A stretch of DNA of 64,000 nucleotides from a virus: the IMG/VR virus record IMGVR_UViG_3300027754_004232, positions 28,194-92,193 of that record. One strand, given 5' to 3'. Each line of letters begins with the position of its first letter. Within the stretch, counting starts at the first letter, position 1. Shown piece by piece: positions 34,054 through 51,153 of this stretch. The notes beneath the pieces were generated by a model that worked only from the letters and a program-made list of their open reading frames with translations, had not been told where the DNA came from and made no database searches. The translations under genes were made by a program, and so were the position numbers.

Positions 34054-37000
34054 TTAACCCATTTCATCTGTTATTTGCCTATCTATTTCACTAGTTATCC
34101 ATCCTTTTAGAGACTCAGTAGCATCTGTTACTGCTGCATAAACACTACTAGTATCAAAATTAACATTTAATGAAGCATTTAAAGTGCCCATTATTTCTAA
34201 ATTTAATGTTCCTGGTATTCTATTTATTGCAGCACTTAATTCATCTACATATGTTTTAAATTTTTCTAATGATGAGCTAAAACCGCTGTTAAATCCTGTT
34301 GAATTTGTACCAAATTGTGTAACTGCATTATTAAATTTATCTATTGGTCCTGATCCTATTTTTATTTCAGTTTTTAGTATTCTTGAAAGTTCTTCAAAAC
34401 TAGACTTTGCTATGTTTATTTGATTGTTATTGTTAGAACCGCCATCTGGCCTGTTCATTCTTGATATAGCAGCATCAAATCTTGATGTTCCATTATTAAA
34501 TGTTATTGCAGCTTGCAAAAGTAAGCCAGATGTTTTGCCTCCACTATTTGTTCTTCCTCCAGCATAATAACCAACAGTACCACCATTTGCAAAACCTTCA
34601 ACATCTTTTCCAGTATTTATTGCATGTAGTAAAGAAGCATTCTTAGATGATTGTCTTGCATTAACAACAAACTCACCTGGAGTTAACATGGCTGGAATAG
34701 TGTCAGAGCTAGATGATGGTATTCCACCTTTAGAAAAATATAATTCTTCATTGGCCATAGCATCTTGTTGTGCTTGTAATGCTTCCATCTTAGCTTTTAA
34801 CTGCTCTATTTCTCCTATGCTTTGTTTAGGATCTGTTTTTACTACTGCGTTTGTATTATCTGGTTTCTTATCTTTTACATCTGGTGGAGTTGTTGTTGGT
34901 TGAGTAGGTGGCAGTAAAGGCATAGTCCTTGTTTGTTTTTGTTTTTGTTGTTCTTGTTTTTGCTCTTGTTCTTTTGCTAATTGTATTGGCTTTGTTTCTA
35001 TTGCATATGAACCAAGCTCCTGTGGTCCTTCAGCATAATTCCCTGCATCTCCAATTCTGCTCACACCAGCTTTTTTATTAGCATCTGGCCCTTTGAAGAA
35101 ATTAAATCCAAGTTGTTTTTCAAAATTTTTGCTAAGAACCTCATTTCTACTATTTCTCTGTGCATCTCCTGCCTTAAGATTCATTTCATATATCTGCTGC
35201 TTATCACCAGATTGAATTGCTTCCATCATTCCTTTTTGAGTAATACCAGCATTTTTTAATCGCTTTTCAAAACTAGTTGAACTATCTCCATAAGCAAGAT
35301 ATTCTATTAAACCACCAGTTGCTGAATAACCAACATCTTGCCCACTATTTATCGCACTTAATAAATCGCCATGTTTAGCAGTAGCACCAGCATTTATTAC
35401 AAACTCACCAGGAGATAGCATAGCAGGTACTGTATCTGTACCTTTAGGCTTAAAGTAAGATGGATTAGGGTTTGGTCTATATGATGGAACATTACCGCCA
35501 GTTGCAAGGTAGTTTACTACTCCACCAACTGACATGCCTGTGGCTCTAGCATCTCGCATTCTCTGATACTTTTGCATAATTCTAATTCGGCCTTCATTAT
35601 CTCCTTGTTCAAGTGCTGCAATTTCATCAGCTTGATTTCTATCATCGATTTGATTAACCAATTGCACTCCACCTTGCTGTGGGGTTATTTCTCCCCTTCT
35701 TGTGCGATTTGCAATACTGTTTGCATCATCTGATGGTAATGGGCCGTTTGATGATTTAACAACATTTGTTTGTGATTTACTATTAGGATCTGATTCTGCT
35801 TTTTTATTTGGTTCTTGTCCATCACCCTTAATTTGTTTTGATATCTCCACTAATCTTTGATATGTATTTTTATTTTCTAATAATGCAATTGTTGCTTGTC
35901 TTTCAAATATTGTTTTTCCTTCATCATCTTGTTTTGGGAAAGAATTTACTCTAAACAAACCACCATCCATTAATCCTTGAACAACATCTTCTTTATTTGC
36001 TGGAAAATTTAAATAACCATAATTACTAATACTTGCTGTAGCATCAAGAGCCTTCAATACATTATTGTCTAATCCACTTTTATATGGATATAAACCTTTT
36101 GCCATTAATACTTCTATTATTTGCTCATTATCCATTTGTGGAACAGCAGTTCTAAAATCAGTCGCACTAAAGTCTATTTCTGTATCTACCTTCTTGCCAA
36201 AATTTACATTTCCTATTCCATTTTCACCTATACCATTACCTGTTAATTTTCCAAATCTTGTAAACGATTGAATATTTTTATCAGACTTTTCTTCTAAAAC
36301 TTCAAGAAAACCTCTTCCTTTTTTTATTTGATTTGTGCTTGCAAATAATTTATTAGCTTTTCCTTCTCTATCTAAAAACATTAATGCTTCAAATATACCT
36401 TGTGCTTGTGCAGTTATAAATTCTGGATCACCACTAATATCAGATCTTTTTGCTTTTTCTTTTATTAATTTTTCAACTAAAACTTGTGGGTCTTTAGTTA
36501 TAGCTTTTCCATATGTTTCTATATATGAAGCCATCTCTGGACCTTTTGAAGTTGCTGCCTTTTCAAAAGAGTTCATGGTTATAAATGAATCAACTATTTT
36601 CTTTTGTCCTGCTGATATATTTGATAACGACTTTTTATCTATAGTTGTTTCCTCTCCTTTTATTAATTTTTGAAGTTCTTGTTGCCCAACTTCAAAAGCA
36701 AACTTTGGCGTTATTCCTGTTGGATCTTCTTCTGGATTATCTTGTATTAATTTCATTTTTCCAATAATTGCCTGTGCCTGTGCCTCTCTTTGCAAATATA
36801 TTTTTGCTATTGCTTCTGGACTTCCTTTTCTTCTAAAGAAATAATTGTCTTCTTTTGCACCCTTTTCTTTAATGAATTTATCTACATTTTGTGATCCTAC
36901 TTCATTAATTAAACCGCTATTTACATAGTCACCTTGAATGCCTGACTCTTTAAGTTTTGCTTTTTGTTTTTCTATATCTTTTGTTTTAGCAATAGCACCT

Positions 37001-40000
37001 TGTTTATCTAAAACATTTGAAGTGTCTAATTTTGCTGCTGTATCTTTTTTAAATTTAGCTTCTTTTTCATTTTTTAATCTTTGCTGTTCATCTGCTATTT
37101 TTTGTTTTTCTTCTGCTATTCTTTTATCAAATTGTTTTTTTGCATCATTAATTTCTTGTGTATAATTCATCTGTCCTTTTTGTTTTATTCCTAATGCAAA
37201 ATCAACATAACCTTTAGATGATTCATTTACTTTTATTTGTTTTTTACCAAGGTTAGTTTCTGGAAAGTATTTATCAAATTCTGCTTTAGAAGGTATTAAA
37301 TTCGACACACCTAAACTTAAAGTTGAAAGAAGACTATTTTGAACAACTGCTGCTCCTTGACCGCTAGATATCTCATCTTTAATCGTTCTATATTCACTTG
37401 AAAAATAATCTATCCCTCTATCTCTTGATTTTTTATCAATTTCTGCTTGTGAATTAAAAAGATTTAACTTAGATTCTTTAGAAAGTCCAACATCATAATT
37501 ATCTAATTCTTTACCAAGTTTTCCTGATTCAACAGTTTTATTTGCTAGTGTAGTGAAATTTTCATTATATAACTTTATTATATTTTGTTTTTCATCGCTT
37601 TTTGTAATAGCTTTATTTATAGTTGAAGGCCAATTTCTAGAAGAACCGAATACTACATTTGATTCCTTTAAATAATCATCATTTCTTTTTTCTTCATTTA
37701 GTTTGTCCGCTTTAGTTTTTAATTCTCCAGAAAAACTAGCTACTTGCAAATATTTTTGTTTAATAGCATTTTTATATTCATCGCTATTCATAAATTCTAA
37801 ATTGGAAGATGCATTATTAATTGTATTATTGATATAACCAGCAATACCACCTCCAGCTAAATAAGATGTTTTTCCACTATTTATAGATTGTAATAATGGT
37901 AGATTTTGTTGTGTCGCACTTCTATTTACTACAAATTCTCCTGGTGTCAACATTGCAGGAACTGTATCTGTACCCCTTGGTTTAAATACTGAACCACCAA
38001 CAGCAAAAGCTGAAACTTGAGGTTTGGCTTCTGCACTTGGCAATTGTTGAATTCCACCAAGTCCATTTATAGCTTCATTTAAAGCTTTTATTCTTGCTTC
38101 AGCATTTGTTGCAGCAGTGGATAATCCTTCACCAACTCCAAGTTGAAGTTCTTTTATACTGGCCAAAGCTCTATCAAATTGATCAAATGATATTTCATTT
38201 CCAGCTAATTTTTGTGCTAAACTATTTAATTTTTCTTCAATTCCAGAACCTTTAAAATCACCTTGTATTTTTGTTTGTTCTGTATTAAGTTCCTTGCCTT
38301 TTTGTTCATGAAATTGATTTCTTGCTAAACGCAATGAATCTTTTCCTTTTCCTTCACTTATCTTTTCTTGAGTAATCTCTCTTATTTTTTGAGCTTCACT
38401 TGCCTTATACCCCCCTTCATTTACTAATGTGTTTTCAATTTCACTAGTATTAGTAATAACACCACCAACTGTTTTTATGTTGGTAGGAACTTTTCGTTCA
38501 CCTTTTTCAGCTAAACTTGTTTGTTCTTGTTTGTTTTTTGCTAAAGCTGTAACTTGTCCTTTATATGTATTCAATTTTTGAAAATCTTCTTTAGTATTAA
38601 ATCCAGATTCACCTAAAAATTTACCTTCTTTTTGAACATCTTTAATCTGTGCTACTTTTTGTTGTTCTTTTCCTTTTTCTGCACTTAAACTATTCTTTTG
38701 CATCTCCTGAGTAAACTTTTGTAGCTCAGAATAAAACTTTTCATTTCTTGAATCTAAATTACTAAAATAATCTTGTTGCAATGATTGCTGATTAGCTATT
38801 ATCTGTCTTTGTGCTTCTTCTTGTTGAGCAAAAATTCTAGCTTGTTCTGCAATAAGAGCCTTCTCTTCTGCTTTATCATCCTTACCAGCACCATATCCAT
38901 TAGCATCAAGTATTTGATCTTGTATTTTCTTTCCCGCAGCACCAAAATTATCTAAAAAATCAAATAAAATAGCATTTTGCTCCGTACTCATCCCTTGAAG
39001 GCTACCGCCACTAGCTTGTACTTGATTAAAAATTGCCTGTCCTTGCAACATTTTTTGCTGTTCTTCTGGACCTTGTGTCAATAGCTTTCTTCCTAAAGAT
39101 CTTTTCTCATCTATGTTTTGTCTAACTTGTGAAAGTTTAGCTTGTGCTGCTTCTAATTTCTTTGATTGATCAGTAAGGCTTTTTAATGCATCATTTAAAT
39201 TAGATGATTGAGATTTTAATTTTGTTAATTCTAATGCTGCACTTCTAAAGTCTGCACCACCATTTGTAGACTTATTTGTATTTAATACTTTCTCTTCTTG
39301 AACTCTTATTTGTTGTTGTGTGCTTTTTAATCTAGAAGCTATGGCAGCAGGGTTTTCTGCTGCACCAGCACCAAAACCAGTTAATCTTTGTTGTTGTTCA
39401 GAAAAGTCATTTCTTGCACCTTGTAAGTTTATACTTTCTGCTGCCCCTTGTTGTACTCCAGGAAGTCTCTGTATTTCATTAGCTGCAAAAGATCTAGATT
39501 TACTTCTTAGTTCAGAAAGTTTACCTATTTGATCCCCAATAGCTTTCTGTCTTTTTGCTAAATCTTCAAGTCCACTTATGTATTTATTTCCAGCATCAGT
39601 TAATTTGCTATCTATTTCATTAAATGCACTTATGAGTGGATCACTAATGTCAGACATTAATTTTTGAGTTGCTTTAGAAACATCTCCACCAGCTTCAGCC
39701 AACAATTTAGTAAAGTCTTCTGACGATACTTTTCCACCAACAGAACTTACTACTTGATCAGCAGCAGCACCTGTTATTCCTCTTGCTTTTAATCCTTCTT
39801 TCAATGCATCAGTTATTTGTGTTGATGTGTCCTTTCCAGATATTGGATTAGCTACAGATTGTGCAAGAATGTCTGGTAAAATTTGACTTGCTGCATTTAC
39901 TGCATTGCCTTGACTCTTAAATTGTTCTCCATAAACACCTAATGCACCAGAAGATTCAGTTATTGCTGCATTAAATTTTGCAAAATCAGGAGTTGAACCA

Positions 40001-43000
40001 CCGCTTTTTTCTGCAAAAGAAGTTAACTTTGTTGATCCAATTGAACCTTCAAATAATGATGAATTTGTATCTAACTTTGATGAGAATGAATCAGCAGATG
40101 CAGCAGCAGCATTAACCGCATTACTAAGTGACTGCATTGAATTTATAGCTCTTGCATTTTCTTGTACTGCTTTAGTAGTTACAGACTTTATTTTTTCTGC
40201 TTGGAAAGACTCTTGTAGTGTTTTTATAAATTGTTTTTCTGCATCTGCAATACTAATATCTTGAGCAGAAGCAATCTTAGCAATTTGTTCTTTTCCAGAC
40301 CCACCACCAGCGGACCTTAAATCTTTAAGTAATCCACCCTTAAGATCTTCAAAATTTGTTGTGGCTATATCTCCACCACCAGATTTTATTTTTAATGCTG
40401 CATCTTTACCTATTTGTTCACTGTATTTATTTAAAACATTAGTCAATGGTCCTATTTGTGCAGCGTTAGTTTCTTTTGAAGATTTAGACAATGTTTCATT
40501 ATACTTTTTTTGATTTACATCAGTTCCAGTAAGCCCAAAACTAATAGTGTTTAAGCCTTTCATAAAACTACTATTGTTGCCACCAGATTCTTCATATGCT
40601 TTTGTGGCGTTTTCTTCAGTCACAACTTTTTGATTTTCGGATATTTTTCGTAATGTGGAATCATTTACTTCAAGTAAACCACTTGAAACTCTTTCAAATA
40701 TATTTTGCAAATTATTTAATGCTTGAGCAATTTTTGCTTCTCTTATTTCAGCTTCTGCTTGTTTTATTCCATTGTGGTATCCTTCTATTGCACCAACTAT
40801 TCCAGCTATTCCAGCACCCACACCAGCAACAACTGGGCCAAATTTAGCTAATGATTGACCAGCAACAGCAGCGTATGTGCTTGCTGAACTTAGTGCTGCA
40901 CCAAAAGCTTGTGCTGATTTAAAACTAGATGCTGCACCTTCATCTACCTTTACAGTATCTCCTTCGCCCTTAGAAACTATTCCCGCTGCTGTTCCACCCG
41001 AAGACTTAATTCTTTCACTTAAAAAACTAGCACCCACAGCAGCAGTAGTTAGTCTGTTAGCTACAGTACTTCCTCTTGATTGTTTAAACTGTTGATCTCC
41101 TTCTGAACCAGTTTCAAAGTCAGTTCTTTTTGCACCAAAAAGTGCCCTTTCTCCAAAATCTTTTAATGCTCCACCTTTTGTTAGTTCTCCAGTTTCCTTA
41201 TATCCACCACCAACAAGTTTTTTACCTAAACCAGTATCTCCAGTTATTTCTCCTTGAGCATTAGTCTGTAGTTTTCTTTGCCCTTTACTGGCCTGATTAA
41301 CATAATTATCTACAACTGATTGTACTTGTATATCATTTACTGGCTTTCCTCTTTTTACTGCATCTGCTCTGACTTGTTTTTCTACTCCAGTTCTATATTC
41401 GCCCAAAGCTTCTTGCTTTAAATTTTTCTTGTCTTCCTTAGTAGCCTTTCGGTTAAATGTTGCCTCAAAATTTGCGGTTTTTTGTTTAACAATATCACTT
41501 ATTGATCCTGGACCCCTAGATGATTGTTCACCAACAACTTTATTGTTTTTTGTTACTTCTCCAGATTTATTTACTTTGTATTGGTCTAAATCTACTTTTG
41601 CTTTTGATTGTTCGTCTTCTGCTGTTTTATATTTTGCTTGATCAGCAGCAACAGTTTTCTGAAGTGGTACAAGCCTAGATTTTTCAGATACAAGTTCCCT
41701 TCTTTTATCTGCCAATTGATTGTTTACGCTGTCTAATTTTTTTTGTGCTCTAGCATCACCTGGGTTTGCTCTAAGAAAAGCTTCTTGTTTTTTTTGTGCT
41801 GCTTCAAGACCCTTAATTCCTTTGGATAAATTTTCAGTTACTGTTTGTTGATCTTCTAATGTTTTTGTTGATCTTTCAAGCTGTTGCTTAAGTCTATTCG
41901 CTTCTGCTGATGTATCTACTAATTTTTGCCCTTTTGTTTTAATATCGTTATAGCTAGTTGCTGCTTTAGTTCTTGCCTGACTTCGAGTTAAATCTGGATT
42001 ATTTTGCATCTGCTGATCAACTAGTTGCTTTGCTAATCTAGCCATTTTTCTAGGGTCTGCTGGATCAAAAGTATTGTCCTCACTTAATGGTGTGCCACCC
42101 TTGCCTAATTTTACTGAGCCACCTCTAGCAAATTTAGCAAACTGATTCATAGCATGTAATTTTGAAGAACCAATCTTGTTTGCTTCTTGTGGACTATATA
42201 TGTATTCACCTGGCATTACTAATGCAGGAACAGTACCACCACTAGCAAATCTTGAGGCTTTTGCTAAATTATCTGCACCTATCTTATTAACTGAAGACTT
42301 TCTAATTACAAAAGAGCCTTCGGGCAAATCCATAGGAACAGTGTCGGAGTTTCCAGTTCCTGGTACTAATCCACCAGTTGCAAACCTACCTTTTTTGGTT
42401 CTAGATGTAGCAGCAATACCAGCTAATAATCTTTGGTATTCAGCTTCTTGTGCATCATAGGAAGCTGTATTGCTTGTATTTTTTGTAGCTCTAGGTTTTC
42501 TTGGCTTTCTTGGTTTTTTTACTTTAGCATAAGGATCATAATTATCTTCTGGAATCTGTGTGTTTGGTAAACTTACAATTGGCTTTGCTGCTTGTGCCTG
42601 TGGTTTTAATTCCGATACGACTGGCTTTGCAATCGCTATTGGTATTGTTGCTTGTGCCTGTGGTTTTGTTTCTGAAACGACTGGCTTTGCAGTCGCTGTA
42701 GATCTCAAGCTCCTTAAGTTTTCTGCCAAATTTTCATTCGCTATTCCTCTTTCTCTTACTCTATTTGATTGTCTTTCATTTAATCTAAGATTTCCTTTAA
42801 TGCGATTTTCTGCTGATGTATCTCTAAGTCGTTTTAAGGCATCAGCATTATCTTTAATCTTCTGTTCTTGTGTTCCATATGAGCCTATTTTGGCAAGTTC
42901 CATTTCATCAAATAAAGTTTTTTCTTGTGCAGGAGCAGACTGCTTTCTTGATATGTTATATCTTTCGGACTCTGTTTTCGGAGTTCTTGGTTCTTTTTTA

Positions 43001-46000
43001 GTTTTCTGACTTCTTGCTATTTTAATATTTAAATTTTCGTTGAAATCCCTTTCTTCTCTTTGCATTCTTAGTCTTTGTGCTTGTGGCGATGTGCCTGGAA
43101 TATCAGAAAAGAATTTAAATCTTTTTGGGTCTACTTGTTGTTGTTCTTGAGGTGCTTTATAATTTTCATTTATACCGATTAAATTTTTTGGTTCTAAACT
43201 TTCTTTTGGATTAGGCAACCCTCTTCCTTCTCTTCGTTGTCTATCTAAAGCCAACTTTTTCTGTAGTTCTTTATATTGATCTGAACCTTCAAATACTTTT
43301 GTGTCTCTAGCTATACCAAATGTTTTATTTTGTTGGTTTTCTTCATCTATTCCAGAAATAATGCTGCTTAAACTTGAAGCATTATCAGTTTTTGCTTTTG
43401 TTGCATCTGCTGTACTTGCTGAAGCAAGATTTCTATTTTTTTCTGCTTTAGCAGTTCTAGCAATATTTTCAGCTTTTTTTCTAGCATTTCTTTCTGTAGC
43501 TACTCTTAATTCTTCAGTGCGTTTTTCTTTTGGCGTTTTTGGTTTCCAAGGGAATGTTCCAATGGTTCCAAATTTTATTACATCTTTATCTAGCTGTATA
43601 TTTAATGGGCCACGCTTATCGCCAAAATCATAATCAAACTTAAGATCTTTGATGTTTTTTGTTTGTGAAAACTTATCTTGTGCTCTATTAAGTTTTGCTC
43701 TTAGTTCTTCTGAATGTTTTGGTGGTAGTTTAGAAAGAAGCTCATCTAAAGATTTAACGCCTTTTAAATCGTATGTTGGTTTTACTTCTGTTGGTTTTGT
43801 AGTGCCCTTGTCTGCAAGATCTTTATTTGCTGTAACATTAAATTTTGTACCAAGAAAATTAAATCCAACAGACTTTAATTTCATTGATCCAGATGTTCTT
43901 GCATTTACTATTATTTCCTTAGCAGTTTTTATTTTTTCTTTAAAATCAGCTAATTGTTTTGGGCTTAACGCATTGGTAAATTCTTCTAAGTTTTTTGGTT
44001 TTACAACTGGCTTTGCAGTTGGTTTTGGCTTAGTCGGGATAGGTGCGGTAGCGGTAGCTGTGGCGGTAGGTTTTGGTACTGGTGCTGAAACGACTGGCTT
44101 TGCAGTCGGGATAGGTGCGGTGGCGGTGGCGGTAGGTTTTGGTACTGGTGCTGAAACGACTGGCTTTGCAGTCGGTGCTGAAACGACTGGCTTTGCAGTC
44201 GGGATAGGTGCGGTGGCGGTGGCGGTAGGTTTTGGTACTGGTGCTGAAACGACTGGCTTTGCAGTCGGTGTTGAAACGACTGGCTTTGCAGTCGGTGCTG
44301 GAACATATGGCTTTCCAGTCTTTCTTATTTCATCTAAAATTCTCCTTGCTTCATTTTTTCTTTCTTCCCAGTTTGGTCCTCTAGCCTTAGCTTTTTCTTC
44401 CTGCAAAATTCTCGATGCCTCATTCTTTCTTTCCAACCAATTTGGTCCTTGAGATTCACTTTTTGCTTTATTTAAATCTGCTCTTGCTTTATTTAATCTT
44501 TCATTAAATTTCGGTCCTTGAGGTTTCTCATCATATATTTTTGTCCAAGCAGCAAGTGCAGACTTTGCTTCTGGACTTGCAATGTCTTCGTTATATATTT
44601 TATCCCAAGCAGCAAGTGCAGACTTTACTTTTGGGTTTTCCATTCCTTCATCATCTATTTTTAACCAAGCAGCAAGTGCTTCTTTTTCTGAAATTCCTGG
44701 CTTTGCAGTCGGTGCGGTAGCTATAGGTTTTGATACTGGTTCTGAAACGACTGGTTTTACAGTCGCCTCATCTTCATCTGGCCTTCTACCCGCTTGATTT
44801 ACATATTCTCTATGCCCTCTTTTTACTTGTCTTTCATACTGAAATTTTTTAAATTCTTTAGTGTCACTAATAAGCTTTCCTGTTTTTGGATCTTTTTTAA
44901 GATTGGGTTTTAATAAGTTAAGGGGGTTTAATTTTGACAATGTGTCTCGCACACCACCAAAAATGCCTTTTGCTTTTTTTATTCCTAAATATTTTTCTGC
45001 AAATTTCTGTTTTCTTCTTTCTCCTTTAAATTCAATGTTTTTTCTAGCATCATATGTGTCACTTTGATTAAAATCTGTTAATAGTCTTCCGCTATCTCCA
45101 CCTCTTGATCCTACCAGTTCTCCTGGATAAACAAAACTTTTTAGTATATTGCTTTCTCCCATATCTCCACCACTAGGAAGAAGAATTGATCTTCTGTCAG
45201 CAATATTTCTTTTTTCGTATTGCTTCCTTATTTTACTTTCTGCTTCAAGTTTTTTTGCTTGTTTTTTTTCTTCTATTTGTTTAGGAGAAGAGAATATTTT
45301 TTTGCCAGCTTTATTTCCAAGTGCCCCAAGTCCAAATCCAGAAGCCATAGATCCAACAACTAAACCAGAAAAATATCCCATAAAAGGACCAATACTTGGA
45401 TCATCACCAAGAATAGAATCACCACCAAGTATTCCAGCAGCAAATGGAACCATCCCACCAACAACACCAAGCGAAACACCAAGCAACATTGACTTATCAC
45501 CAACAGTTAATCTTTCGGGTCCACCCCCCTTGCCAAACTTTTGTCTAGCCACTTGATTTTTTGGAACAACTAGTTCGCCTGGCTCAAGTAATGCACGAAC
45601 CTTATCTCCAGAGCCACTTCCCGGTACTATCCCGCCCTTTTTCATCCTTACAATAGGACCACCTTCAAAGTATCCACCTCTTTTTGCTTTAGCAGCTTTC
45701 TGTCTTTGGCTATATGCAGTAGAAGCATTATCTGTTTTAGCTCTCTCTTTTGCTTCTTCATTTGGGCGAATGCCCCTAGCTGCTTCAAAACTATCAAATC
45801 TATTTGGTTTGGTGAATGTTTCTGGATTTGTACCTTGCCATTGACTTCTTGCTTGAGCTTTAGTTGGAGGATCTTTAAAAATAGATCTAAACATTTCATC
45901 TTCTGATTGAGCATTACTTTTTGGGGGTGGTGTCGTAGTCTTTGGACCAGCTTCAGCCCTTGCTTTTCTAAGACTGTTTCTATCTAATAAAGTCTTAAGA

Positions 46001-48780
46001 GCAGCATTTATTCTTTCCATGTTGCCATTAGGTTTAGCAGTAGGATTCTTGTCTGGATGATTTATTTTTGCAGCAACTCTAAATGCACCCTTTATCACTT
46101 CATCTGTATGAATAACGCCCTTGACCAAATTTAAAATTTCTTCGGGGGAAAAATTTGGTGGAAATGGTTTTGGTCCTACATTATTGCCCTCCATGAATCT
46201 TTGGCGAGAGATTGGTCCACCTAGAGCAGCTTTTCTAAATTTAAATTTGCGAATTTTTTCAAGTTCTTTATTATTGTATGTTGTTTTTATTGAACTTAAT
46301 TCATCAAGAATTCTAGTATCGTAGCTTGTATCTGATTCAGTAGCCGATTGAATATTTTCTTTTCTGTAAGATTTTTTTTCTTTTTTTAAATCATTTATTT
46401 GATTTTGTACATCTGCTTTTTTTAAACTAGAATCTTCTATCCAATCTTTTTGTTTTAATTTTTTAATTATTTCTAATTGAAAAACTTTAGTGCCAACTTC
46501 TTTTCTAAGAATCGAACTAATTGCATCATCACTACCTTTATTTTTTGAATCTATAAATTTATCTTTTGAATCAAAATCAGAACCTTTAATTCCTATCATT
46601 GTTGCTTGTGTTTTATTGAATTTTGGAAAATCAAATCTAGCACCAGAAACTTGAGGTTTTAATCCTGTTTTTTTTGAAATATAAGACTCTAAAAAATACC
46701 CCCTTTTAGAGCCTACTTGTGATGCTAAATATTTTGGATCAACACTAGAATCATTTTTAAATATGCCAGAAACTAATGGTATATTGTTTTTACTTTTTAA
46801 ATTAATGCCCAATTTTTTTTTCTTATTTAAGAATGAATTTAATGTTTTTTGATTGCTTACGAGATTTTTATCTTTTGATATATAATCATCTGGTCCAAAA
46901 TAATAATTTCTAGCACCTTTTGCTCTAAGTATTTCGTTTTGAATTACTTGATATTCTTGAGAAAGCACAGTGTTTTCTATTTTTTTATCTAATGAATTTA
47001 TGTCTTTTTTACCAATAGTATATATATTTATTGATGAATCTTTTATGCTTATTTTTTGTTTTGCTTTTTGTGGTTTATTCCGATATGTAAAAACATCATC
47101 ACCATAAATAAGTGGCGTTCCTTTAGGAAAAGATATTTGATTATTATTTGATTTGGATTGTTTCTTGCTTGGTTCACTTGAAGCTTCTATTATTGCTCCT
47201 TGACCAGGAGTTGCTTGAAAATTATTTATATCTATAGTACCGCCACCAGCATATTTATTTCTTCTTACTTGATTCCTTGGCACAACCATCTCACCTGGCT
47301 CAAGCAAAGCTGGCACTTTATCCCCAGTTCCACTTCCTGGGACTATACCCCCTGTTCTCATCCTAAGAAAACCGCCATATGCCTTTTTATTTGTCCTTGC
47401 AGAAGAATTGTCTGCACCAGCACCTTTTACAAAACCTGTGGCAAAAGAGCCAATTCCTTGACCAATTTTTACAGCAGCAAGGGCAGTAAATAATGGGAGT
47501 AAACCTTTAAGTGAATTAATTAATGACAAAACAGAAGTGGCAGCACCAATGAATGTATCAGCCAAACTTCTAAAGCCAGGGCTATTAACAATACTTCTAC
47601 CAACCTCAAAAAAGCTTTCCTTCAACTTCTGTAGTTTTACAGCAAGAGCATCCTGTGCTTGGCCAGCATTAACGGCTAAAGACACACTACCAGCTTGAGC
47701 TATACCCAATGCCTTCTGTGCAGTAGCAAATTCTTGAATAAGTGGGATAACCTTACTGATCTGCCTATAACCACCTAATTGCTCAACAATGGCACTAAAT
47801 CGGGGGTCTGTTGACCTTAATTCAGAAAGTCCAGCAGATAATCTTTTGACTGCTTCATACGGACCAACAAACTGCTGTTCTAGGCCAGCATCGCCTAAAG
47901 CCCTAGCTTCTTCTGCTGTATACCTAAGATTTATACCAACTTCTTTTAGAGCGTTAGCCGTATCATTTCTTTGTATTCGTGTAAATATAGTTCGCAAACC
48001 AGTACCAATACTTTCGGCACTTTCTCTTGTCGTTTGTCGTACTGATGTAAATAAAGCTATAAGTTCATTTAGTTGACCACCAGCAGCTTTAAATGCACCC
48101 CCTGTCTTTCTAATCGCCTCAATAATGTCTGATGCTTCAACAGCAAACTCACCAGCTACGGCATTAACAGAACCTAAAGCTGCACCAAGATCTTTTGCTT
48201 CGATCTTAAACTGCTTCATAATAGCAATAGCACCTTCAGTCGTATCTTTGAGGTTATCAAAGTTTGGTGCTAAAGCAGCTTGTGCCATTGCTTCTAATGC
48301 ATCTTTAGTTTCAGAAAGAGTTAAGTTAGCTTGTTTTAAAACTACCGCTACGCCAATCAAGTCCTTGCTAGAAACACCTAAATTTTTAGACAAATTTGTT
48401 ACTTGTTGACCTACAGCACCAACATCTTGTACTGTGTCTGAAGAAACTTGTCTCAGCCTAATCATCTCTCTATCAAAATCTACCGCAGCAGAAACAGCTT
48501 CTTTCATTGTGTTGGTAAAAGCAATGATTGATCCAGCAGTAACGGCAAATGCAGCAAACCTTTTGGCAGCAAAGCCAGCTTGTCTACCAAAATTTTCCAT
48601 AGAGTCAGTAGCTTCAGAAATTTGAGACTTTATTTGCCCCAATCCAGAAGCACTACCTCTATCAATACCAAGCTTTACTTGAGTATTAGAATTTAGTGCT
48701 GCATTTAATTGGCTTGAAGCATTCCTCAGAGAAGCACTATTGAGAGCAATATTCAATTGAGCAGTTAAATTAAAAGCCAT
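34054..48780 (-). CDS. Giant tape measure protein (4908 aa) with inserted cargo-like domains
   Basis: N-terminal phage TMP-type region (AVDFDREM, GESIGTGLRTIFTRI-like segment), long Ala/Gln/Lys helical tracts, repeated DTVPAMLTPGEFV modules, and a position after tail-tube and chaperone genes. Confidence 0.9.
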   Translation of the reverse strand: MAFNLTAQLNIALNSASLRNASSQLNAALNSNTQVKLGIDRGSASGLGQIKSQISEATDSMENFGRQAGFAAKRFAAFAVTAGSIIAFTNTMKEAVSAAVDFDREMIRLRQVSSDTVQDVGAVGQQVTNLSKNLGVSSKDLIGVAVVLKQANLTLSETKDALEAMAQAALAPNFDNLKDTTEGAIAIMKQFKIEAKDLGAALGSVNAVAGEFAVEASDIIEAIRKTGGAFKAAGGQLNELIALFTSVRQTTRESAESIGTGLRTIFTRIQRNDTANALKEVGINLRYTAEEARALGDAGLEQQFVGPYEAVKRLSAGLSELRSTDPRFSAIVEQLGGYRQISKVIPLIQEFATAQKALGIAQAGSVSLAVNAGQAQDALAVKLQKLKESFFEVGRSIVNSPGFRSLADTFIGAATSVLSLINSLKGLLPLFTALAAVKIGQGIGSFATGFVKGAGADNSSARTNKKAYGGFLRMRTGGIVPGSGTGDKVPALLEPGEMVVPRNQVRRNKYAGGGTIDINNFQATPGQGAIIEASSEPSKKQSKSNNNQISFPKGTPLIYGDDVFTYRNKPQKAKQKISIKDSSINIYTIGKKDINSLDKKIENTVLSQEYQVIQNEILRAKGARNYYFGPDDYISKDKNLVSNQKTLNSFLNKKKKLGINLKSKNNIPLVSGIFKNDSSVDPKYLASQVGSKRGYFLESYISKKTGLKPQVSGARFDFPKFNKTQATMIGIKGSDFDSKDKFIDSKNKGSDDAISSILRKEVGTKVFQLEIIKKLKQKDWIEDSSLKKADVQNQINDLKKEKKSYRKENIQSATESDTSYDTRILDELSSIKTTYNNKELEKIRKFKFRKAALGGPISRQRFMEGNNVGPKPFPPNFSPEEILNLVKGVIHTDEVIKGAFRVAAKINHPDKNPTAKPNGNMERINAALKTLLDRNSLRKARAEAGPKTTTPPPKSNAQSEDEMFRSIFKDPPTKAQARSQWQGTNPETFTKPNRFDSFEAARGIRPNEEAKERAKTDNASTAYSQRQKAAKAKRGGYFEGGPIVRMKKGGIVPGSGSGDKVRALLEPGELVVPKNQVARQKFGKGGGPERLTVGDKSMLLGVSLGVVGGMVPFAAGILGGDSILGDDPSIGPFMGYFSGLVVGSMASGFGLGALGNKAGKKIFSSPKQIEEKKQAKKLEAESKIRKQYEKRNIADRRSILLPSGGDMGESNILKSFVYPGELVGSRGGDSGRLLTDFNQSDTYDARKNIEFKGERRKQKFAEKYLGIKKAKGIFGGVRDTLSKLNPLNLLKPNLKKDPKTGKLISDTKEFKKFQYERQVKRGHREYVNQAGRRPDEDEATVKPVVSEPVSKPIATAPTAKPGISEKEALAAWLKIDDEGMENPKVKSALAAWDKIYNEDIASPEAKSALAAWTKIYDEKPQGPKFNERLNKARADLNKAKSESQGPNWLERKNEASRILQEEKAKARGPNWEERKNEARRILDEIRKTGKPYVPAPTAKPVVSTPTAKPVVSAPVPKPTATATAPIPTAKPVVSAPTAKPVVSAPVPKPTATATAPIPTAKPVVSAPVPKPTATATATAPIPTKPKPTAKPVVKPKNLEEFTNALSPKQLADFKEKIKTAKEIIVNARTSGSMKLKSVGFNFLGTKFNVTANKDLADKGTTKPTEVKPTYDLKGVKSLDELLSKLPPKHSEELRAKLNRAQDKFSQTKNIKDLKFDYDFGDKRGPLNIQLDKDVIKFGTIGTFPWKPKTPKEKRTEELRVATERNARKKAENIARTAKAEKNRNLASASTADATKAKTDNASSLSSIISGIDEENQQNKTFGIARDTKVFEGSDQYKELQKKLALDRQRREGRGLPNPKESLEPKNLIGINENYKAPQEQQQVDPKRFKFFSDIPGTSPQAQRLRMQREERDFNENLNIKIARSQKTKKEPRTPKTESERYNISRKQSAPAQEKTLFDEMELAKIGSYGTQEQKIKDNADALKRLRDTSAENRIKGNLRLNERQSNRVRERGIANENLAENLRSLRSTATAKPVVSETKPQAQATIPIAIAKPVVSELKPQAQAAKPIVSLPNTQIPEDNYDPYAKVKKPRKPRKPRATKNTSNTASYDAQEAEYQRLLAGIAATSRTKKGRFATGGLVPGTGNSDTVPMDLPEGSFVIRKSSVNKIGADNLAKASRFASGGTVPALVMPGEYIYSPQEANKIGSSKLHAMNQFAKFARGGSVKLGKGGTPLSEDNTFDPADPRKMARLAKQLVDQQMQNNPDLTRSQARTKAATSYNDIKTKGQKLVDTSAEANRLKQQLERSTKTLEDQQTVTENLSKGIKGLEAAQKKQEAFLRANPGDARAQKKLDSVNNQLADKRRELVSEKSRLVPLQKTVAADQAKYKTAEDEQSKAKVDLDQYKVNKSGEVTKNNKVVGEQSSRGPGSISDIVKQKTANFEATFNRKATKEDKKNLKQEALGEYRTGVEKQVRADAVKRGKPVNDIQVQSVVDNYVNQASKGQRKLQTNAQGEITGDTGLGKKLVGGGYKETGELTKGGALKDFGERALFGAKRTDFETGSEGDQQFKQSRGSTVANRLTTAAVGASFLSERIKSSGGTAAGIVSKGEGDTVKVDEGAASSFKSAQAFGAALSSASTYAAVAGQSLAKFGPVVAGVGAGIAGIVGAIEGYHNGIKQAEAEIREAKIAQALNNLQNIFERVSSGLLEVNDSTLRKISENQKVVTEENATKAYEESGGNNSSFMKGLNTISFGLTGTDVNQKKYNETLSKSSKETNAAQIGPLTNVLNKYSEQIGKDAALKIKSGGGDIATTNFEDLKGGLLKDLRSAGGGSGKEQIAKIASAQDISIADAEKQFIKTLQESFQAEKIKSVTTKAVQENARAINSMQSLSNAVNAAAASADSFSSKLDTNSSLFEGSIGSTKLTSFAEKSGGSTPDFAKFNAAITESSGALGVYGEQFKSQGNAVNAASQILPDILAQSVANPISGKDTSTQITDALKEGLKARGITGAAADQVVSSVGGKVSSEDFTKLLAEAGGDVSKATQKLMSDISDPLISAFNEIDSKLTDAGNKYISGLEDLAKRQKAIGDQIGKLSELRSKSRSFAANEIQRLPGVQQGAAESINLQGARNDFSEQQQRLTGFGAGAAENPAAIASRLKSTQQQIRVQEEKVLNTNKSTNGGADFRSAALELTKLKSQSSNLNDALKSLTDQSKKLEAAQAKLSQVRQNIDEKRSLGRKLLTQGPEEQQKMLQGQAIFNQVQASGGSLQGMSTEQNAILFDFLDNFGAAGKKIQDQILDANGYGAGKDDKAEEKALIAEQARIFAQQEEAQRQIIANQQSLQQDYFSNLDSRNEKFYSELQKFTQEMQKNSLSAEKGKEQQKVAQIKDVQKEGKFLGESGFNTKEDFQKLNTYKGQVTALAKNKQEQTSLAEKGERKVPTNIKTVGGVITNTSEIENTLVNEGGYKASEAQKIREITQEKISEGKGKDSLRLARNQFHEQKGKELNTEQTKIQGDFKGSGIEEKLNSLAQKLAGNEISFDQFDRALASIKELQLGVGEGLSTAATNAEARIKALNEAINGLGGIQQLPSAEAKPQVSAFAVGGSVFKPRGTDTVPAMLTPGEFVVNRSATQQNLPLLQSINSGKTSYLAGGGIAGYINNTINNASSNLEFMNSDEYKNAIKQKYLQVASFSGELKTKADKLNEEKRNDDYLKESNVVFGSSRNWPSTINKAITKSDEKQNIIKLYNENFTTLANKTVESGKLGKELDNYDVGLSKESKLNLFNSQAEIDKKSRDRGIDYFSSEYRTIKDEISSGQGAAVVQNSLLSTLSLGVSNLIPSKAEFDKYFPETNLGKKQIKVNESSKGYVDFALGIKQKGQMNYTQEINDAKKQFDKRIAEEKQKIADEQQRLKNEKEAKFKKDTAAKLDTSNVLDKQGAIAKTKDIEKQKAKLKESGIQGDYVNSGLINEVGSQNVDKFIKEKGAKEDNYFFRRKGSPEAIAKIYLQREAQAQAIIGKMKLIQDNPEEDPTGITPKFAFEVGQQELQKLIKGEETTIDKKSLSNISAGQKKIVDSFITMNSFEKAATSKGPEMASYIETYGKAITKDPQVLVEKLIKEKAKRSDISGDPEFITAQAQGIFEALMFLDREGKANKLFASTNQIKKGRGFLEVLEEKSDKNIQSFTRFGKLTGNGIGENGIGNVNFGKKVDTEIDFSATDFRTAVPQMDNEQIIEVLMAKGLYPYKSGLDNNVLKALDATASISNYGYLNFPANKEDVVQGLMDGGLFRVNSFPKQDDEGKTIFERQATIALLENKNTYQRLVEISKQIKGDGQEPNKKAESDPNSKSQTNVVKSSNGPLPSDDANSIANRTRRGEITPQQGGVQLVNQIDDRNQADEIAALEQGDNEGRIRIMQKYQRMRDARATGMSVGGVVNYLATGGNVPSYRPNPNPSYFKPKGTDTVPAMLSPGEFVINAGATAKHGDLLSAINSGQDVGYSATGGLIEYLAYGDSSTSFEKRLKNAGITQKGMMEAIQSGDKQQIYEMNLKAGDAQRNSRNEVLSKNFEKQLGFNFFKGPDANKKAGVSRIGDAGNYAEGPQELGSYAIETKPIQLAKEQEQKQEQQKQKQTRTMPLLPPTQPTTTPPDVKDKKPDNTNAVVKTDPKQSIGEIEQLKAKMEALQAQQDAMANEELYFSKGGIPSSSSDTIPAMLTPGEFVVNARQSSKNASLLHAINTGKDVEGFANGGTVGYYAGGRTNSGGKTSGLLLQAAITFNNGTSRFDAAISRMNRPDGGSNNNNQINIAKSSFEELSRILKTEIKIGSGPIDKFNNAVTQFGTNSTGFNSGFSSSLEKFKTYVDELSAAINRIPGTLNLEIMGTLNASLNVNFDTSSVYAAVTDATESLKGWITSEIDRQITDEMG
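44005..44300 (-). repeat. Intragenic tandem repeats in the TMP encoding PTAKPVVSAP / PVPKPTATATAPI
   Basis: Near-identical DNA units (gaaacgactggctttgcagtcgg) repeated five times, plus more diverged copies near 42600-42700 and 44700-44760. Confidence 0.9.
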
Positions 48781-48864: not shown

Positions 48865-49737
48865 TTAGTTCTCAACGACCTTTGCTGGTTCAACAACAAC
48901 TGCTGGTGCTTCTGTTGTTTTAACAGCTTCAACCTTTTCTTCAATCGGCTTACCTTCGTCATCAAGGAATGGAGAGAAGTCAACAACATAATCTCCTTCC
49001 TCGTTAACTCGATTGCCATTAATATCAATGAGTTCACCAGCCTCACTAATATACCTACCATCCTTATTGACTAGCCTACCCTCAGAATCAACCCTTCGCC
49101 CTGTCTTATCAACTAAATGCAACTCTTCATCCACAAAGTTATATTTAGCTAAAAACTGGTTCTCAGGGAGCTTCTTTTCATAATCTGGATCAAGATTATA
49201 AAGCAACATAGCGAGGCTTCCTGCTGCCTGTCCAGTTGCTGGATCGTCATCTCTATTCAAGTAATCTTCATAATTACCAAAATATGTTTTCCCTGTCTCT
49301 GAATACACCGTACACGAACTAACCCAGTAATTGAATTGGGCATTATCTGCTTGACCTTCAGCAGTATTATTATCTAGAGATGATCGCTCAGAGGTTAAAG
49401 ACCTGAGTTCTGCACGATCTTTCCTCATTTCAAGAGCTAAGTCCTTAGCCTGATTGAGTTTAATACCGCCAGACTTAATCTTTCTTTCTGCCCCATTAAT
49501 TTTTTCCAACAATTTGCGATATTCAGCTTCTTTGTTATCATCCCAAAGATTCTGCTCTCGCATAACATTATTAACTTTACCACGAAGAATTGCACCAGAT
49601 TCAACGGCATCTCGAAATGCCTTATTATAAATCTTTTGCCCTTCCTGCCTTTGTTTAACATTAGGTCGAACAACACAAAGTTCGATTTCTTTGCTATCCA
49701 AAGTCACCTTAAACTGCTTCTTATTTGTGACACTCAT
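48865..49737 (-). CDS. Putative tail assembly chaperone
   Basis: Between the tail tube and TMP genes, helical, with C-terminal 7-aa G(R/N)xV(D/N)xx repeats. GGAGG Shine-Dalgarno. Confidence 0.55.
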   Translation of the reverse strand: MSVTNKKQFKVTLDSKEIELCVVRPNVKQRQEGQKIYNKAFRDAVESGAILRGKVNNVMREQNLWDDNKEAEYRKLLEKINGAERKIKSGGIKLNQAKDLALEMRKDRAELRSLTSERSSLDNNTAEGQADNAQFNYWVSSCTVYSETGKTYFGNYEDYLNRDDDPATGQAAGSLAMLLYNLDPDYEKKLPENQFLAKYNFVDEELHLVDKTGRRVDSEGRLVNKDGRYISEAGELIDINGNRVNEEGDYVVDFSPFLDDEGKPIEEKVEAVKTTEAPAVVVEPAKVVEN

Positions 49738-49739
49738 AA

Positions 49740-50105
49740 CTAATCCTCCTTTTGCTTAAGAATATTCTGGTGTCTGTTCCAATAAACAATATACTGCATT
49801 ATCTCATTTTCACAAGATCTAATTTGATGATTGCCATTATTTAAAACATTTGTTCTACACAAATCCCATAGTTCCCTCCACTTTCTTTGTTTGTCAGTTA
49901 AATCCGCTTCGCTTATTCCATATCCCCAAATCTCTCCAAAGTTTTGCTCAAAAGAAGAAAGAGCACCAATAAATGATGTTCTTAGCTTGGTAGTTATAAT
50001 TTTTTGCAATCTTGATTTTGATTCAGTTTCATACTTTTTTTTGTTTCTATCCTCATCTTTTTTGGAAAAGTTAGAAGCATCTTCCATTTGTGAGTATATA
50101 TCCAT
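49740..50105 (-). CDS. Hypothetical protein in the tail chaperone region
   Basis: ORF with GGAGG upstream of the ATG at 50105, tightly packed with neighbours. Confidence 0.55.
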   Translation of the reverse strand: MDIYSQMEDASNFSKKDEDRNKKKYETESKSRLQKIITTKLRTSFIGALSSFEQNFGEIWGYGISEADLTDKQRKWRELWDLCRTNVLNNGNHQIRSCENEIMQYIVYWNRHQNILKQKED

Positions 50106-50106
50106 T

Positions 50107-51153
50107 TTACTTACCTCCAGCATTCATTTGCATTTGAATATCCCTTATGGAGTCGGGCATATTTTCTTCTGCAAGAGTGCCATGTTTTTTTAGAGCTTGT
50201 GTTCTTTCTTTCTTAATCATCCTTGCATTCATGTCATTTAAAGATTCTATCTTCTTAGCATCTTCCTTGCTTTCTGCAATTATAAATATTTCTTTACTAT
50301 TTCTTATTTTATCATTTGATAGTAATCCATCTATTCCAGTTTCTATTCCTTTTTTAACCCTTTTCCTTCTTTGTAGAATTAACCATCCATCAAGCATGTC
50401 ATCGTCTTCTAAAACTTCTTCTGATGGAGATTCTGGATGCTCATATATATTATCATAGAGTGATGACCAAATGATAACGCTTTTTTGTTCTTCTGTTAAA
50501 TCTACAGCAGGAACGCCAAATAGATTATTCTCAGACTTTCTACATGACCATGTAGATCGCCAAGGATCTGTTCTGGCTATTTCTCTAAAATCAGAATCAG
50601 ATATTTTATTTTCAACAAATACTGAAGTGGCATCTTCTAAAAGTGGTTCTGTCTGCTTCCAAAATTCATCGCCTTCCCAAACTCTAGTTCCGTCTTCAAA
50701 CAAAAGCCCTTTACCAACTAAATACCTCATTTTATTCATGGAGGCAGTACCCTCACAGGATAAATGATTGTAGGTACTTTTTTCTCTGTATAATTCAGAG
50801 TATGATTCCTTTGCTATTTTAAGCATTTTTCTAATTAATTTTCGTTCTTCTGTTTTGAATGTGGCTTCAAATAATCTTACTTTTAATTCTTCAATATCCT
50901 TTGGCATTTGAACGATTTGTTTTTCTTTCTCATCATCCCATACATTGTTGCTATACATGAAGAATTCTAATTCTTCTTGATTGTATAGACCTTCTAATGC
51001 TGCTTCTTCAAATGATTCTATGAATATTTCTTGAGCGATGTGGCGAATGTGGCGATCTGGCTGTTTAAGCAAATAGACTTTTCCGTTGATTTTACAACGA
51101 AAAAATCCAGTAATAATTCTACTAATATATAATTCCTTCTTAAACTGTTCCAT
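50107..51153 (-). CDS. Putative tail assembly chaperone-like protein
   Basis: Directly follows the major tail gene. Acidic and helical, with a YEHPESP..EVLEDDDMLDGW motif. Confidence 0.5.
   Translation of the reverse strand: MEQFKKELYISRIITGFFRCKINGKVYLLKQPDRHIRHIAQEIFIESFEEAALEGLYNQEELEFFMYSNNVWDDEKEKQIVQMPKDIEELKVRLFEATFKTEERKLIRKMLKIAKESYSELYREKSTYNHLSCEGTASMNKMRYLVGKGLLFEDGTRVWEGDEFWKQTEPLLEDATSVFVENKISDSDFREIARTDPWRSTWSCRKSENNLFGVPAVDLTEEQKSVIIWSSLYDNIYEHPESPSEEVLEDDDMLDGWLILQRRKRVKKGIETGIDGLLSNDKIRNSKEIFIIAESKEDAKKIESLNDMNARMIKKERTQALKKHGTLAEENMPDSIRDIQMQMNAGGK

Follow-up and report, generated by a model that had tools for sequence, protein, structure and literature searches.

This study concerns a single, very long gene in a 64,000-nucleotide stretch of DNA, hereafter the window, taken from positions 28,194 to 92,193 of the virus record IMGVR_UViG_3300027754_004232, a 92,193-bp IMG/VR record that is estimated to be 57% complete. 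The gene lies within a same-strand run of large late-type open reading frames (ORFs), and its 4,908-residue product is identified by sequence comparison as a tape measure protein (TMP) of the PhageMin_Tail type, because in a Pfam search of the whole protein residues 125-335 match PF10145 at 84.3 bits (curated cut-off 33.2) and its first ~470 residues match phrog_4211 and phrog_28, both described as 'tail length tape measure protein' (E 7.5e-26 and 1.3e-22). Apart from this domain, the sole Pfam match of the TMP is a sub-threshold hit to DnaJ at residues 882-935; NCBIfam models gave no match to the protein, and PDB sequences gave none to its whole length. Distributed along the chain are seven copies of a ~55-residue junction module, one pair of them in tandem, and it is between these modules that related phages exchange sequence. 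The features are listed below from the N- to the C-terminus, with nucleotide coordinates of the window and amino acid (aa) numbering along the 4,908-residue TMP.

34054..48780, minus strand: tape measure protein gene; open frame of 4,908 aa with PF10145 and PHROG matches, and more than 250 giant relatives with the same architecture
47776..48408, minus strand: PhageMin_Tail domain; aa 125-335, part of a conserved unit at the N-terminus (aa 1-461)
47230..47397, minus strand: junction module 1, short type; aa 462-517, 60.4 bits to the module hidden Markov model (HMM)
46234..47229, minus strand: orphan segment A1; aa 518-849, found only in relatives P0007 and P0008 (jackhmmer)
46216..46233, minus strand: isolated half-motif KAALGG; aa 850-855
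45976..46137, minus strand: J-domain with HPD motif; aa 882-935, in a mobile cassette at aa ~850-1034
45514..45660, minus strand: junction module 2, short type; aa 1041-1089, HMM 53.4 bits, 74% DNA identity to module 1
45286..45495, minus strand: glycine-rich hydrophobic hairpin; aa ~1096-1165, KD19 peak of 1.93 at aa 1096-1124
44689..44829, minus strand: proline- and threonine-rich (PT-rich) 'AKPVVS' linker 1; aa 1318-1364, internal repeat
44026..44355, minus strand: PT-rich linker 2; aa 1476-1585, internal repeat, a homology block starting at aa 1590-1592
42565..42726, minus strand: PT-rich linker 3; aa 2019-2072, internal repeat, homology blocks ending at aa 2026-2050
42109..42396, minus strand: double junction module 3a/3b; aa 2129-2184 and 2183-2224, HMM 76.6 and 48.7 bits
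38020..42108, minus strand: conserved core segment C; aa 2225-3587, hydrophobic at aa 2643-2668 (KD19 1.91)
37840..38019, minus strand: junction module 4, long type; aa 3588-3647, HMM 89.6 bits
35524..37839, minus strand: variable segment D; aa 3648-4419, at least 50% covered in only 11 relatives
35302..35523, minus strand: junction module 5, long type; aa 4420-4493, HMM 83.4 bits
34750..35301, minus strand: variable segment E; aa 4494-4677, at least 50% covered in 10 relatives
34570..34749, minus strand: junction module 6, long type; aa 4678-4737, HMM 87.1 bits
34057..34569, minus strand: C-terminal tail, probably docking in the tail tip; aa 4738-4908, the stretch behind the last module having a median of 142 aa in 254 giant relatives

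The strict core pattern of the module, D[TKS][IV][PR][AM].[LM].[PE]G[ES].[VI], occurs six times in the TMP (aa 487, 1059, 2146, 3605, 4449 and 4693), and a seventh copy, at aa 2184, abuts the third without a spacer to form the double. An HMM built from the copies recovers each of them at 48-90 bits, at positions that agree to within a few codons with the six core-pattern copies, double included, of the original prediction, which had been made from the sequence alone; the isolated KAALGG that it placed near 46215 was also found. Every copy is begun and ended by (F/Y/M)xxGG, and two subtypes can be told apart, a short one (modules 1 and 2) in which a PGExVV hairpin leads directly into the closing (Y/F)xxGG, and a long one with an extra 'A...NLxLLxxIN.G' helix. 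Copies within the gene share only 40-74% DNA identity, with exact runs of at most 14 nt, which argues for selection on the module peptide; the copies are therefore old, and the peptide is what has been kept. Self-comparison of the TMP finds internal similarity only among the modules and the three PT-rich 'AKPVVS' linkers, so the inter-module segments are unrelated to one another, in line with what had been predicted, and the low-complexity repeats noted at the outset are indeed present. Between PT linkers 1 and 2 (aa 1365-1475, about 44356-44688) we also observed short tandem helical repeats, 'SALAAW.KIY.E' three times and 'GPNW.ERKNEA.RIL.E' twice.

Across 1,402 distinct copies from many proteins the module reads FAxGG-x(6-10)-(G)TDTVPAMLTPGEFV(V/I)N(K/R)xA-x(6)-L-x(2)-(I/M)N-x-G-x(3-6)-(F/Y)AxGG, with the strongest conservation at G26 (98%), L23 (92%), P20 (91%), E27 (89%), D17 (88%) and N46 (86%), and with both GG pairs conserved at 86-90%. 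AlphaFold2, run on module 4 with a 34-copy alignment, predicts a short hairpin and one helix at a mean predicted local distance difference test (pLDDT) score of 62, rising to ~70-76 in the core. Three solved structures contain TMP chains that carry the module by sequence (Douge gp16 in 8zdo, and also 8vjh and 8rk3); in 8zdo only residues 1658-1699 of Douge gp16 are modelled, which gives no help on the module fold. The module was also considered as a form of 'motif 3' of phage TM4, an identity that was rejected, since motif 3 is a peptidoglycan-hydrolase motif of ~110 aa with a conserved Trp.

The relationship between modules and sequence exchange becomes apparent on comparison with 119 relatives. 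The N-terminal unit is present in 114 of them, and is 91-94% identical in DNA to those of relatives L007 to L012, and core segment C is found in 59; segments A, B, D and E occur in 2, 5, 11 and 10, respectively, and the C-terminal tail in 20 (the counts for C, D and E being relatives in which the segment is covered at 50% or more). For example, P0003 is 94% identical over aa 1-521 and unrelated thereafter up to aa 1590, while P0005 is 95% identical over aa 1-510 and beyond this point matches only in the modules and in one short weak match up to aa 4417. At aa 4417, that is at module 5, homology to P0004, P0005 and P0009 is back, with 89% identity in the case of P0004. In DNA, the match of 91-94% identity that five close relatives show breaks off within module 1, at aa 503-510. 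Module 3a/3b forms an island of 77-90% DNA identity (aa 2127/2132-2220) shared with L009, L011 and L012, the flanks of the island having no DNA-level match, and module 4 is an island as well, 161 nt long and 82-86% identical in L008, L011 and L012; taken together these islands span 161-289 nt at 77-90% identity. Edges of DNA homology that lie neither at modules nor at KAALGG lie at PT linkers. The slot after module 1 is itself a mosaic, in that the first 262 residues of the slot in L008 resemble L007 (90%) and not the window, although L008 has the J-domain cassette in common with the window.

Because homology breaks at modules or PT linkers, and because modules form DNA islands between unrelated flanks, we conclude that the inter-module segments are swapped, and on these sequence comparisons the exchange of stretches between modules among related phages, and with it a scaffold on which cargo is exchanged, can be regarded as established. 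The check proposed by the original prediction, namely whether modules are kept and the segments between them swapped across related TMPs, was thus borne out. Of the internal ends of strong alignments, 44 of 56 fall within 30 aa of a module, compared with 15.6% expected, as do 7 of 14 distinct breakpoints (p = 0.003), although conserved modules of themselves extend alignments, the relatives are not independent samples, and the other seven distinct breakpoints are away from modules, for the most part at PT linkers. The scaffold comprises, starting at the N-terminus, the PhageMin_Tail unit, a junction module, a variable slot, the double module and the conserved core of ~1,400 aa with its membrane-type hydrophobic stretch, followed by a module, a variable segment, a second module, a second variable segment, a last module and a C-terminal tail of ~170 aa.

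Among the inter-module segments, the clearest functional assignment is that of the J-domain. The window sequence matches PF00226 (DnaJ) at 23.9 bits (E 4.6e-5), below the gathering score of 27.8, and its orthologues in L008 and L012 reach 22.2 and 25.9 bits. With a profile of four orthologous J-cassettes, over 20 solved J-domains are matched, the best being 4j7z (E 4.5e-5) and a further example 5vso (3e-4), the two top matches of that search being designed repeat proteins and hence artefacts. Together these matches confirm, at the level of sequence, that aa 882-935 is a J-domain, as had originally been proposed. The HPD motif is required to stimulate Hsp70; it is intact in the window ('INHPDKN'), L008 and L012, and reads HSD in the cassette of L011 (L011:11978-12274), and the cargo copies may not all be active. 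The cassette occurs at differing positions in P0013, P0014, P0016, P0017, P0018, P0020, L008, L011 and L012, and its DNA block starts at aa 849-860, at the isolated KAALGG (L008, L011, L012), and ends at aa 1034, just before module 2.

Other relatives carry other domains. In P0083 an ART-PolyVal domain (78 bits, aa 794-976) sits between module 1 (460-502) and the double module (1200-1287), which is the slot of the J-domain, while E3_binding, EF-hand and Gly-zipper matches were found in further relatives and ADPrib_exo_Tox appears in the database's precomputed list. Recognisable host-directed domains thus do lie between modules, a J-domain here and ART-PolyVal in P0083; for this TMP the prediction of several effectors went too far, the J-domain being the sole identified one. 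We also observed, in relatives of 206-221 kb, a slot of ~220 aa reaching from module 1 to the double module (L013:11582-12247, and frame +1 of L015); it gives a weak, below-cut-off match (E 0.0013) to LPD14, a 'large polyvalent protein-associated domain', which may be taken as a further hint of a polyvalent-protein repertoire inside TMPs.

The remaining segments of the window are less informative. The hydrophobic hairpin after module 2 agrees with the membrane hairpin originally predicted, and the orthologous stretch in L012 has a weak Gly-zipper match. Segment A1 had been labelled nuclease-like, a label for which we found no support: its only homologues are in P0007 and P0008, searches with aa 530-850 returned no shorter homologues, no atlas match and no loci in viral or metagenome contigs, and an AlphaFold2 model built from three sequences is uninformative (pLDDT 45). 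Segment D has no Pfam, PDB or atlas match, the atlas giving weak unnamed viral clusters only (scores of at most 0.81).

In general, the module is far more widespread than the architecture in which we found it. A profile of the seven copies, searched against 1.84 billion representative proteins, matches 24,061 proteins at E<=1e-3, 5,970 at <=1e-10 and 1,007 at <=1e-30, the last of which must therefore carry several copies each; the best matches have up to 11 copies in 7,794 residues. With one copy as query, tblastn finds 208 cultured-phage records, in which nearly all matches lie in annotated TMPs, at one or two places per record, and whose hosts range from Actinobacteria to Alpha- and Betaproteobacteria and Cyanobacteria. 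Two copies each are present in mycobacteriophage Douge (973-1027 and 1413-1461) and in some Gordonia phages. Kikimora and Marchewka (312-348 kb), jumbo siphoviruses of Brevundimonas that are in culture, also have the module in their annotated TMPs, and with them giant module-bearing TMPs could be studied in the laboratory. In a two-sequence search with a profile of 668 module copies, lambda gpH was found to contain one copy, at residues 732-784 of 853 (21.7 bits, E 1.4e-8), and this, together with the cultured-phage TMPs, supports the earlier statement that the motif often stands singly near the C-terminus. By sequence, the module of the window is the multiplied form of a single element that in ordinary TMPs stands ~70-200 residues away from the C-terminal end. 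Neither Pfam nor NCBIfam has a model of its own for this element; the NCBIfam model TIGR01541 tape_meas_lam_C (332 positions) matches lambda gpH at 448.7 bits over 472-813, and when run against the whole TMP, its last 488 aa and module 4 it gave no match even at E<=1.

A search with the full-length TMP returned 120 proteins of 2,700-7,500 aa, all with 3-9 modules, and the addition of profile matches brought to 254 the giant proteins fetched (2,300-7,900 aa). All 254 have 3-11 copies, and 225 have an N-terminal TMP domain like the one described here; the first module starts near aa 513, a median of 142 aa separates the last one from the C-terminus, and modules come at a median density of one per ~734 aa, their number correlating with length (r = 0.67) and 160 pairs being in tandem. 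Fifteen related IMG/VR loci lie on contigs of up to 221 kb. The TMP of the window is a member of a very large family of giant TMPs, for the most part uncultured, that share a fixed scaffold. On two short related contigs (L015:1395-4538 and L016:2212-4028) an A-run closely behind module 1 interrupts the TMP frame, which resumes in another frame; a reading as split genes was rejected, as these are A-run frameshifts on short contigs behind which the frame continues, and the breaks look like homopolymer sequencing errors.

Around the TMP gene, none of the ten flanking genes matches a PHROG or Pfam family, which places the phage very distant from described phages. Directly upstream (48865-50123, minus strand) are a 127-aa ORF (49740-50123) and a 290-aa ORF (48865-49737) that begins 2 nt past the stop of the former in a different frame, the layout expected for a programmed-frameshift pair of tail assembly chaperones of the lambda G/GT type; no usable family match was obtained for either ORF. 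At the other end of the TMP, the tail of the protein itself (aa 4738-4908) probably docks in the tail tip, by analogy with the C-terminal peptides of lambda gpHC, T5 pb2C and Douge gp16, which are visible in the hub.

What, then, do the modules do? We propose that they may be joints with a function in TMP maturation, the chain being cut at or next to them after tail assembly in the manner of lambda gpH, and that their conservation would make them recombination joints for the exchange of cargo as well. Lambda gpH sheds a C-terminal piece of ~14 kDa from a glycine-rich region after tail assembly, at an unmapped site, and residues ~690-817, module included, are unresolved in its cryo-EM structure (cryo-electron microscopy; PMC12617516). 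By calculation, cuts after the GG pairs at 710-737 would yield pieces of 12.2-14.6 kDa, and since the module starts at 732 it would therefore stand at or just behind the gpH cleavage zone. In T5, pb2 (L006, NC_005859) is cut after R1127, and the sequence that follows, 'AEGGMMYPG...GEHGTEVV', is the sole place in pb2 (1120-1150) that aligns with the module profile.

Several results, in addition to the limits on the breakpoint counts given above, weigh against this proposal. A Gly run 10-25 residues upstream of the module would explain the lambda fragment size no less well, pb2 is the one TMP with a mapped cut and its alignment from 1128 is not significant, and no protease or peptidase domain was found in the TMP (E<=0.1) or in the ten neighbouring genes; cleavage at the modules, here or in lambda, is thus an argument by analogy with gpH. 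The module is not confidently folded on its own (AlphaFold2 pLDDT 62), and Foldseek found no match for the module 4 model in the PDB. With regard to cargo, a Pfam search of 8 slots and 14 sampled giants left most inter-module sequence without a match, which could therefore be simply ruler, and the J-domain is the one TMP segment with an identified function, itself below the Pfam cut-off and in L011 lacking HPD. With so few recognisable domains, and A1 an orphan, the picture of an effector cassette rests on few domains. Cleavage at the modules is accordingly offered as a tentative reading, one that we would put at somewhat under an even chance, whereas it is probable, given the exchanged segments and the domains found in the slots, that exchangeable proteins enter the host by way of the tail. 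The combined explanation, of a giant TMP that carries swappable, module-fenced cargo, has maturation joints and serves as a ruler, is the best that we can offer and in our judgement slightly more probable than its negation.

The strongest rival, ranked second to the cut maturation joint and possible though doubtful, holds that the modules are uncleaved structural joints, which would hold three (or six) TMP chains in register, attach at intervals to the tube wall or to the tail assembly chaperone, or join a trans-envelope channel, so that a longer ruler would need more modules, while the inter-module sequence would be mostly ruler with its domains as passengers, as in TM4 and T5. The scaling of module number with length (r = 0.67, one per ~734 aa) fits this proposal, as do the association of giant TMPs with giant tails, the scarcity of domain matches between modules, the lack of resolution of the lambda module region in cryo-EM, and the size of the module itself, whose ~55 conserved residues, including a predicted helix, exceed what a protease site needs. 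Spacing of the modules is very uneven, however, with tandem pairs, gaps of 100-500 aa and others of more than 2,000 aa, a poor fit to a periodic staple; ordinary long TMPs need just one or two copies, and module-sited swapping and the presence of enzyme domains in the slots would call for an extra explanation.

It is much less probable that the modules have no role in the mature protein and persist as joints for homologous recombination between co-infecting phages. Such patches would account for modules as DNA islands 77-90% identical between unrelated flanks, with homology breaking inside them, but intragenic copies at 40-56% DNA identity keep the peptide with its near-invariant G, P, L, E, D and N, and a pure recombination patch is unlikely because it is the peptide, not the DNA, that is conserved. 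The same peptide moreover occurs in TMPs with one copy only, those of lambda and of phages from Actinobacteria to Cyanobacteria, where there is no shuffling role, and the PT linkers are joints too without such conservation. A last proposal, that the module is a miniature self-cleaving element akin to the S24/S26 Ser/Lys peptidases of LexA and signal-peptidase type, whose strand-turn-strand reads 'GDSMxPTLxxGDxVxV', with FAxGG as an Ala-Gly-like scissile site, was rejected as highly improbable, since the likeness is one of pattern only (spacing S/T(0), L(5), G(8), D/E(9), then hydrophobics), the seven-copy protein has no Pfam match of this kind at E<=0.1, the would-be nucleophile varies (T in 67%, S in 14% and K in 7% of copies, with K in modules 1 and 2), and the module is far shorter than an S24 catalytic core and without a Foldseek match.

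Returning to the cut maturation joint, its boldest extension would make the module a general, so far undescribed TMP maturation signal at each copy of which the chain is cut or handed over, giant TMPs being virion-borne polyproteins that release a changeable series of host-directed pieces; gpH cleavage would be explained as well. We consider this possible but on balance doubtful. If it were true, the order of release would be fixed, with envelope-acting, C-proximal pieces first and the J-domain or ADP-ribosyltransferase (ART) last, beside the DNA.

A related question is how much of the chain measures the tail. The original prediction held that much of the protein is probably not ruler, given that its full length implies a tail of ~700 nm, an argument weakened by what is known of other giant TMPs. 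Nodularia phage 2AV2 combines a module-bearing TMP of 3,404 aa with a 795-nm tail (PMC6293099), the 5,002-aa TMP of Thermus phage P23-45, gp96, sets an extraordinarily long tail (PMC10770324), and the tail of the related P74-26 is nearly 1 um long (PMC10034513). Furthermore, deletion of the embedded motif mt3 from the TM4 protein gives 'predictably shortened tails' (PMC1796659). Since giant TMPs accompany giant tails and the TM4 deletion shortens the tail, the most economical reading is that the whole chain acts as ruler, which would give a tail of roughly 0.7-1 um, or of 0.7-1.1 um when reckoned at ~0.15-0.23 nm per residue; the inserted segments would lie extended in the tail lumen, exit ahead of the DNA and refold in the host. 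TMPs exit the tail C-terminus first, and the N-proximal slot would therefore emerge last, adjoining the DNA. Such an order would suit cargo that acts in the cytoplasm, for instance a J-domain engaging DnaK or an NAD-dependent ART, and may be compared with that of the N-terminal virion RNA polymerase of P23-45.

TMPs are usually viewed as rulers that play a passive part and contain no more than a single cell-wall enzyme. Already known are TMPs with a single enzyme (TM4, T5), the fusion of TMP and RNA polymerase in P23-45, the cleavage of gpH and pb2, and the concept of polyvalent proteins; the P23-45 fusion was still termed a "previously unsuspected association" as late as 2024. In the searchable literature we found neither a repeated conserved junction module nor module-bounded segment swapping in giant TMPs. 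Our findings would extend the idea of an enzyme within the ruler to a general modular system, found in thousands of environmental phages, whose exchangeable segments are set apart by a conserved joint and in some cases can be recognised as host-manipulating domains, and they draw attention to a very common element, present in 24,061 representative proteins, that has no Pfam or NCBIfam family model of its own. Its position beside the gpH cleavage zone ties the question of where and how TMPs are cut to the delivery of polyprotein cargo by tails, and a general maturation signal, if true, would account for the 50-year-old unmapped cleavage of gpH to gpH*.

Comparison with known systems places the TMP of the window among several partial precedents. 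'Moraphage' (PMC12619734) was set aside, as these are unrelated myoviruses. Among cultured phages, the cyanosiphoviruses vB_NpeS-2AV2 and vB_NspS-kac65/68 of Nodularia are similar in their 3,404-aa TMP, internal double module, which lies near aa 1000-1110 in 2AV2, and 795-nm tail, with genomes of ~140 kb compared with the 92-kb record here, but the sequence similarity is confined to the modules, of which they have two copies rather than seven. Lambda gpH likewise places one module behind a hydrophobic, glycine-rich stretch and ahead of a C-terminal peptide that docks in the tip; unlike the TMP described here it has a single copy and no inserted cargo, and there too the module is a candidate cleavage site. 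In TM4 gp17, with its motif 3, and in T5 pb2 a functional domain lies inside the ruler, the TM4 motif counts towards tail length, and pb2 is cut between a hydrophobic stretch and its enzymatic end, whereas both proteins hold single, envelope-directed cell-wall enzymes and lack a repeated junction element.

The closest parallels in size and in cargo come from P23-45 and from the polyvalent proteins. In contrast to the TMP of the window, gp96 of P23-45 has one fixed virion RNA polymerase and not a module-fenced, swappable series; a sequence relation between the two proteins was not seen, in that no Thermus phage is among the named groups in which tblastn found the module in cultured phages, gp96 itself not having been searched for it; it does share a similar giant size and a working, host-directed, N-proximal enzyme that is active right after ejection (PMC10770324). 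The polyvalent proteins of Iyer et al. (2017) differ in that the junction module is not among their domains and that their proposed processing agent, a zincin-like metallopeptidase, was not found in this TMP, and the paper makes no mention of tape measure proteins (PMC5512222). Nevertheless, they too join changeable host-directed domains in one giant polypeptide that accompanies the DNA, and elements of their repertoire, ART-PolyVal and the weak LPD14 match, recur in the relatives of the TMP described here.

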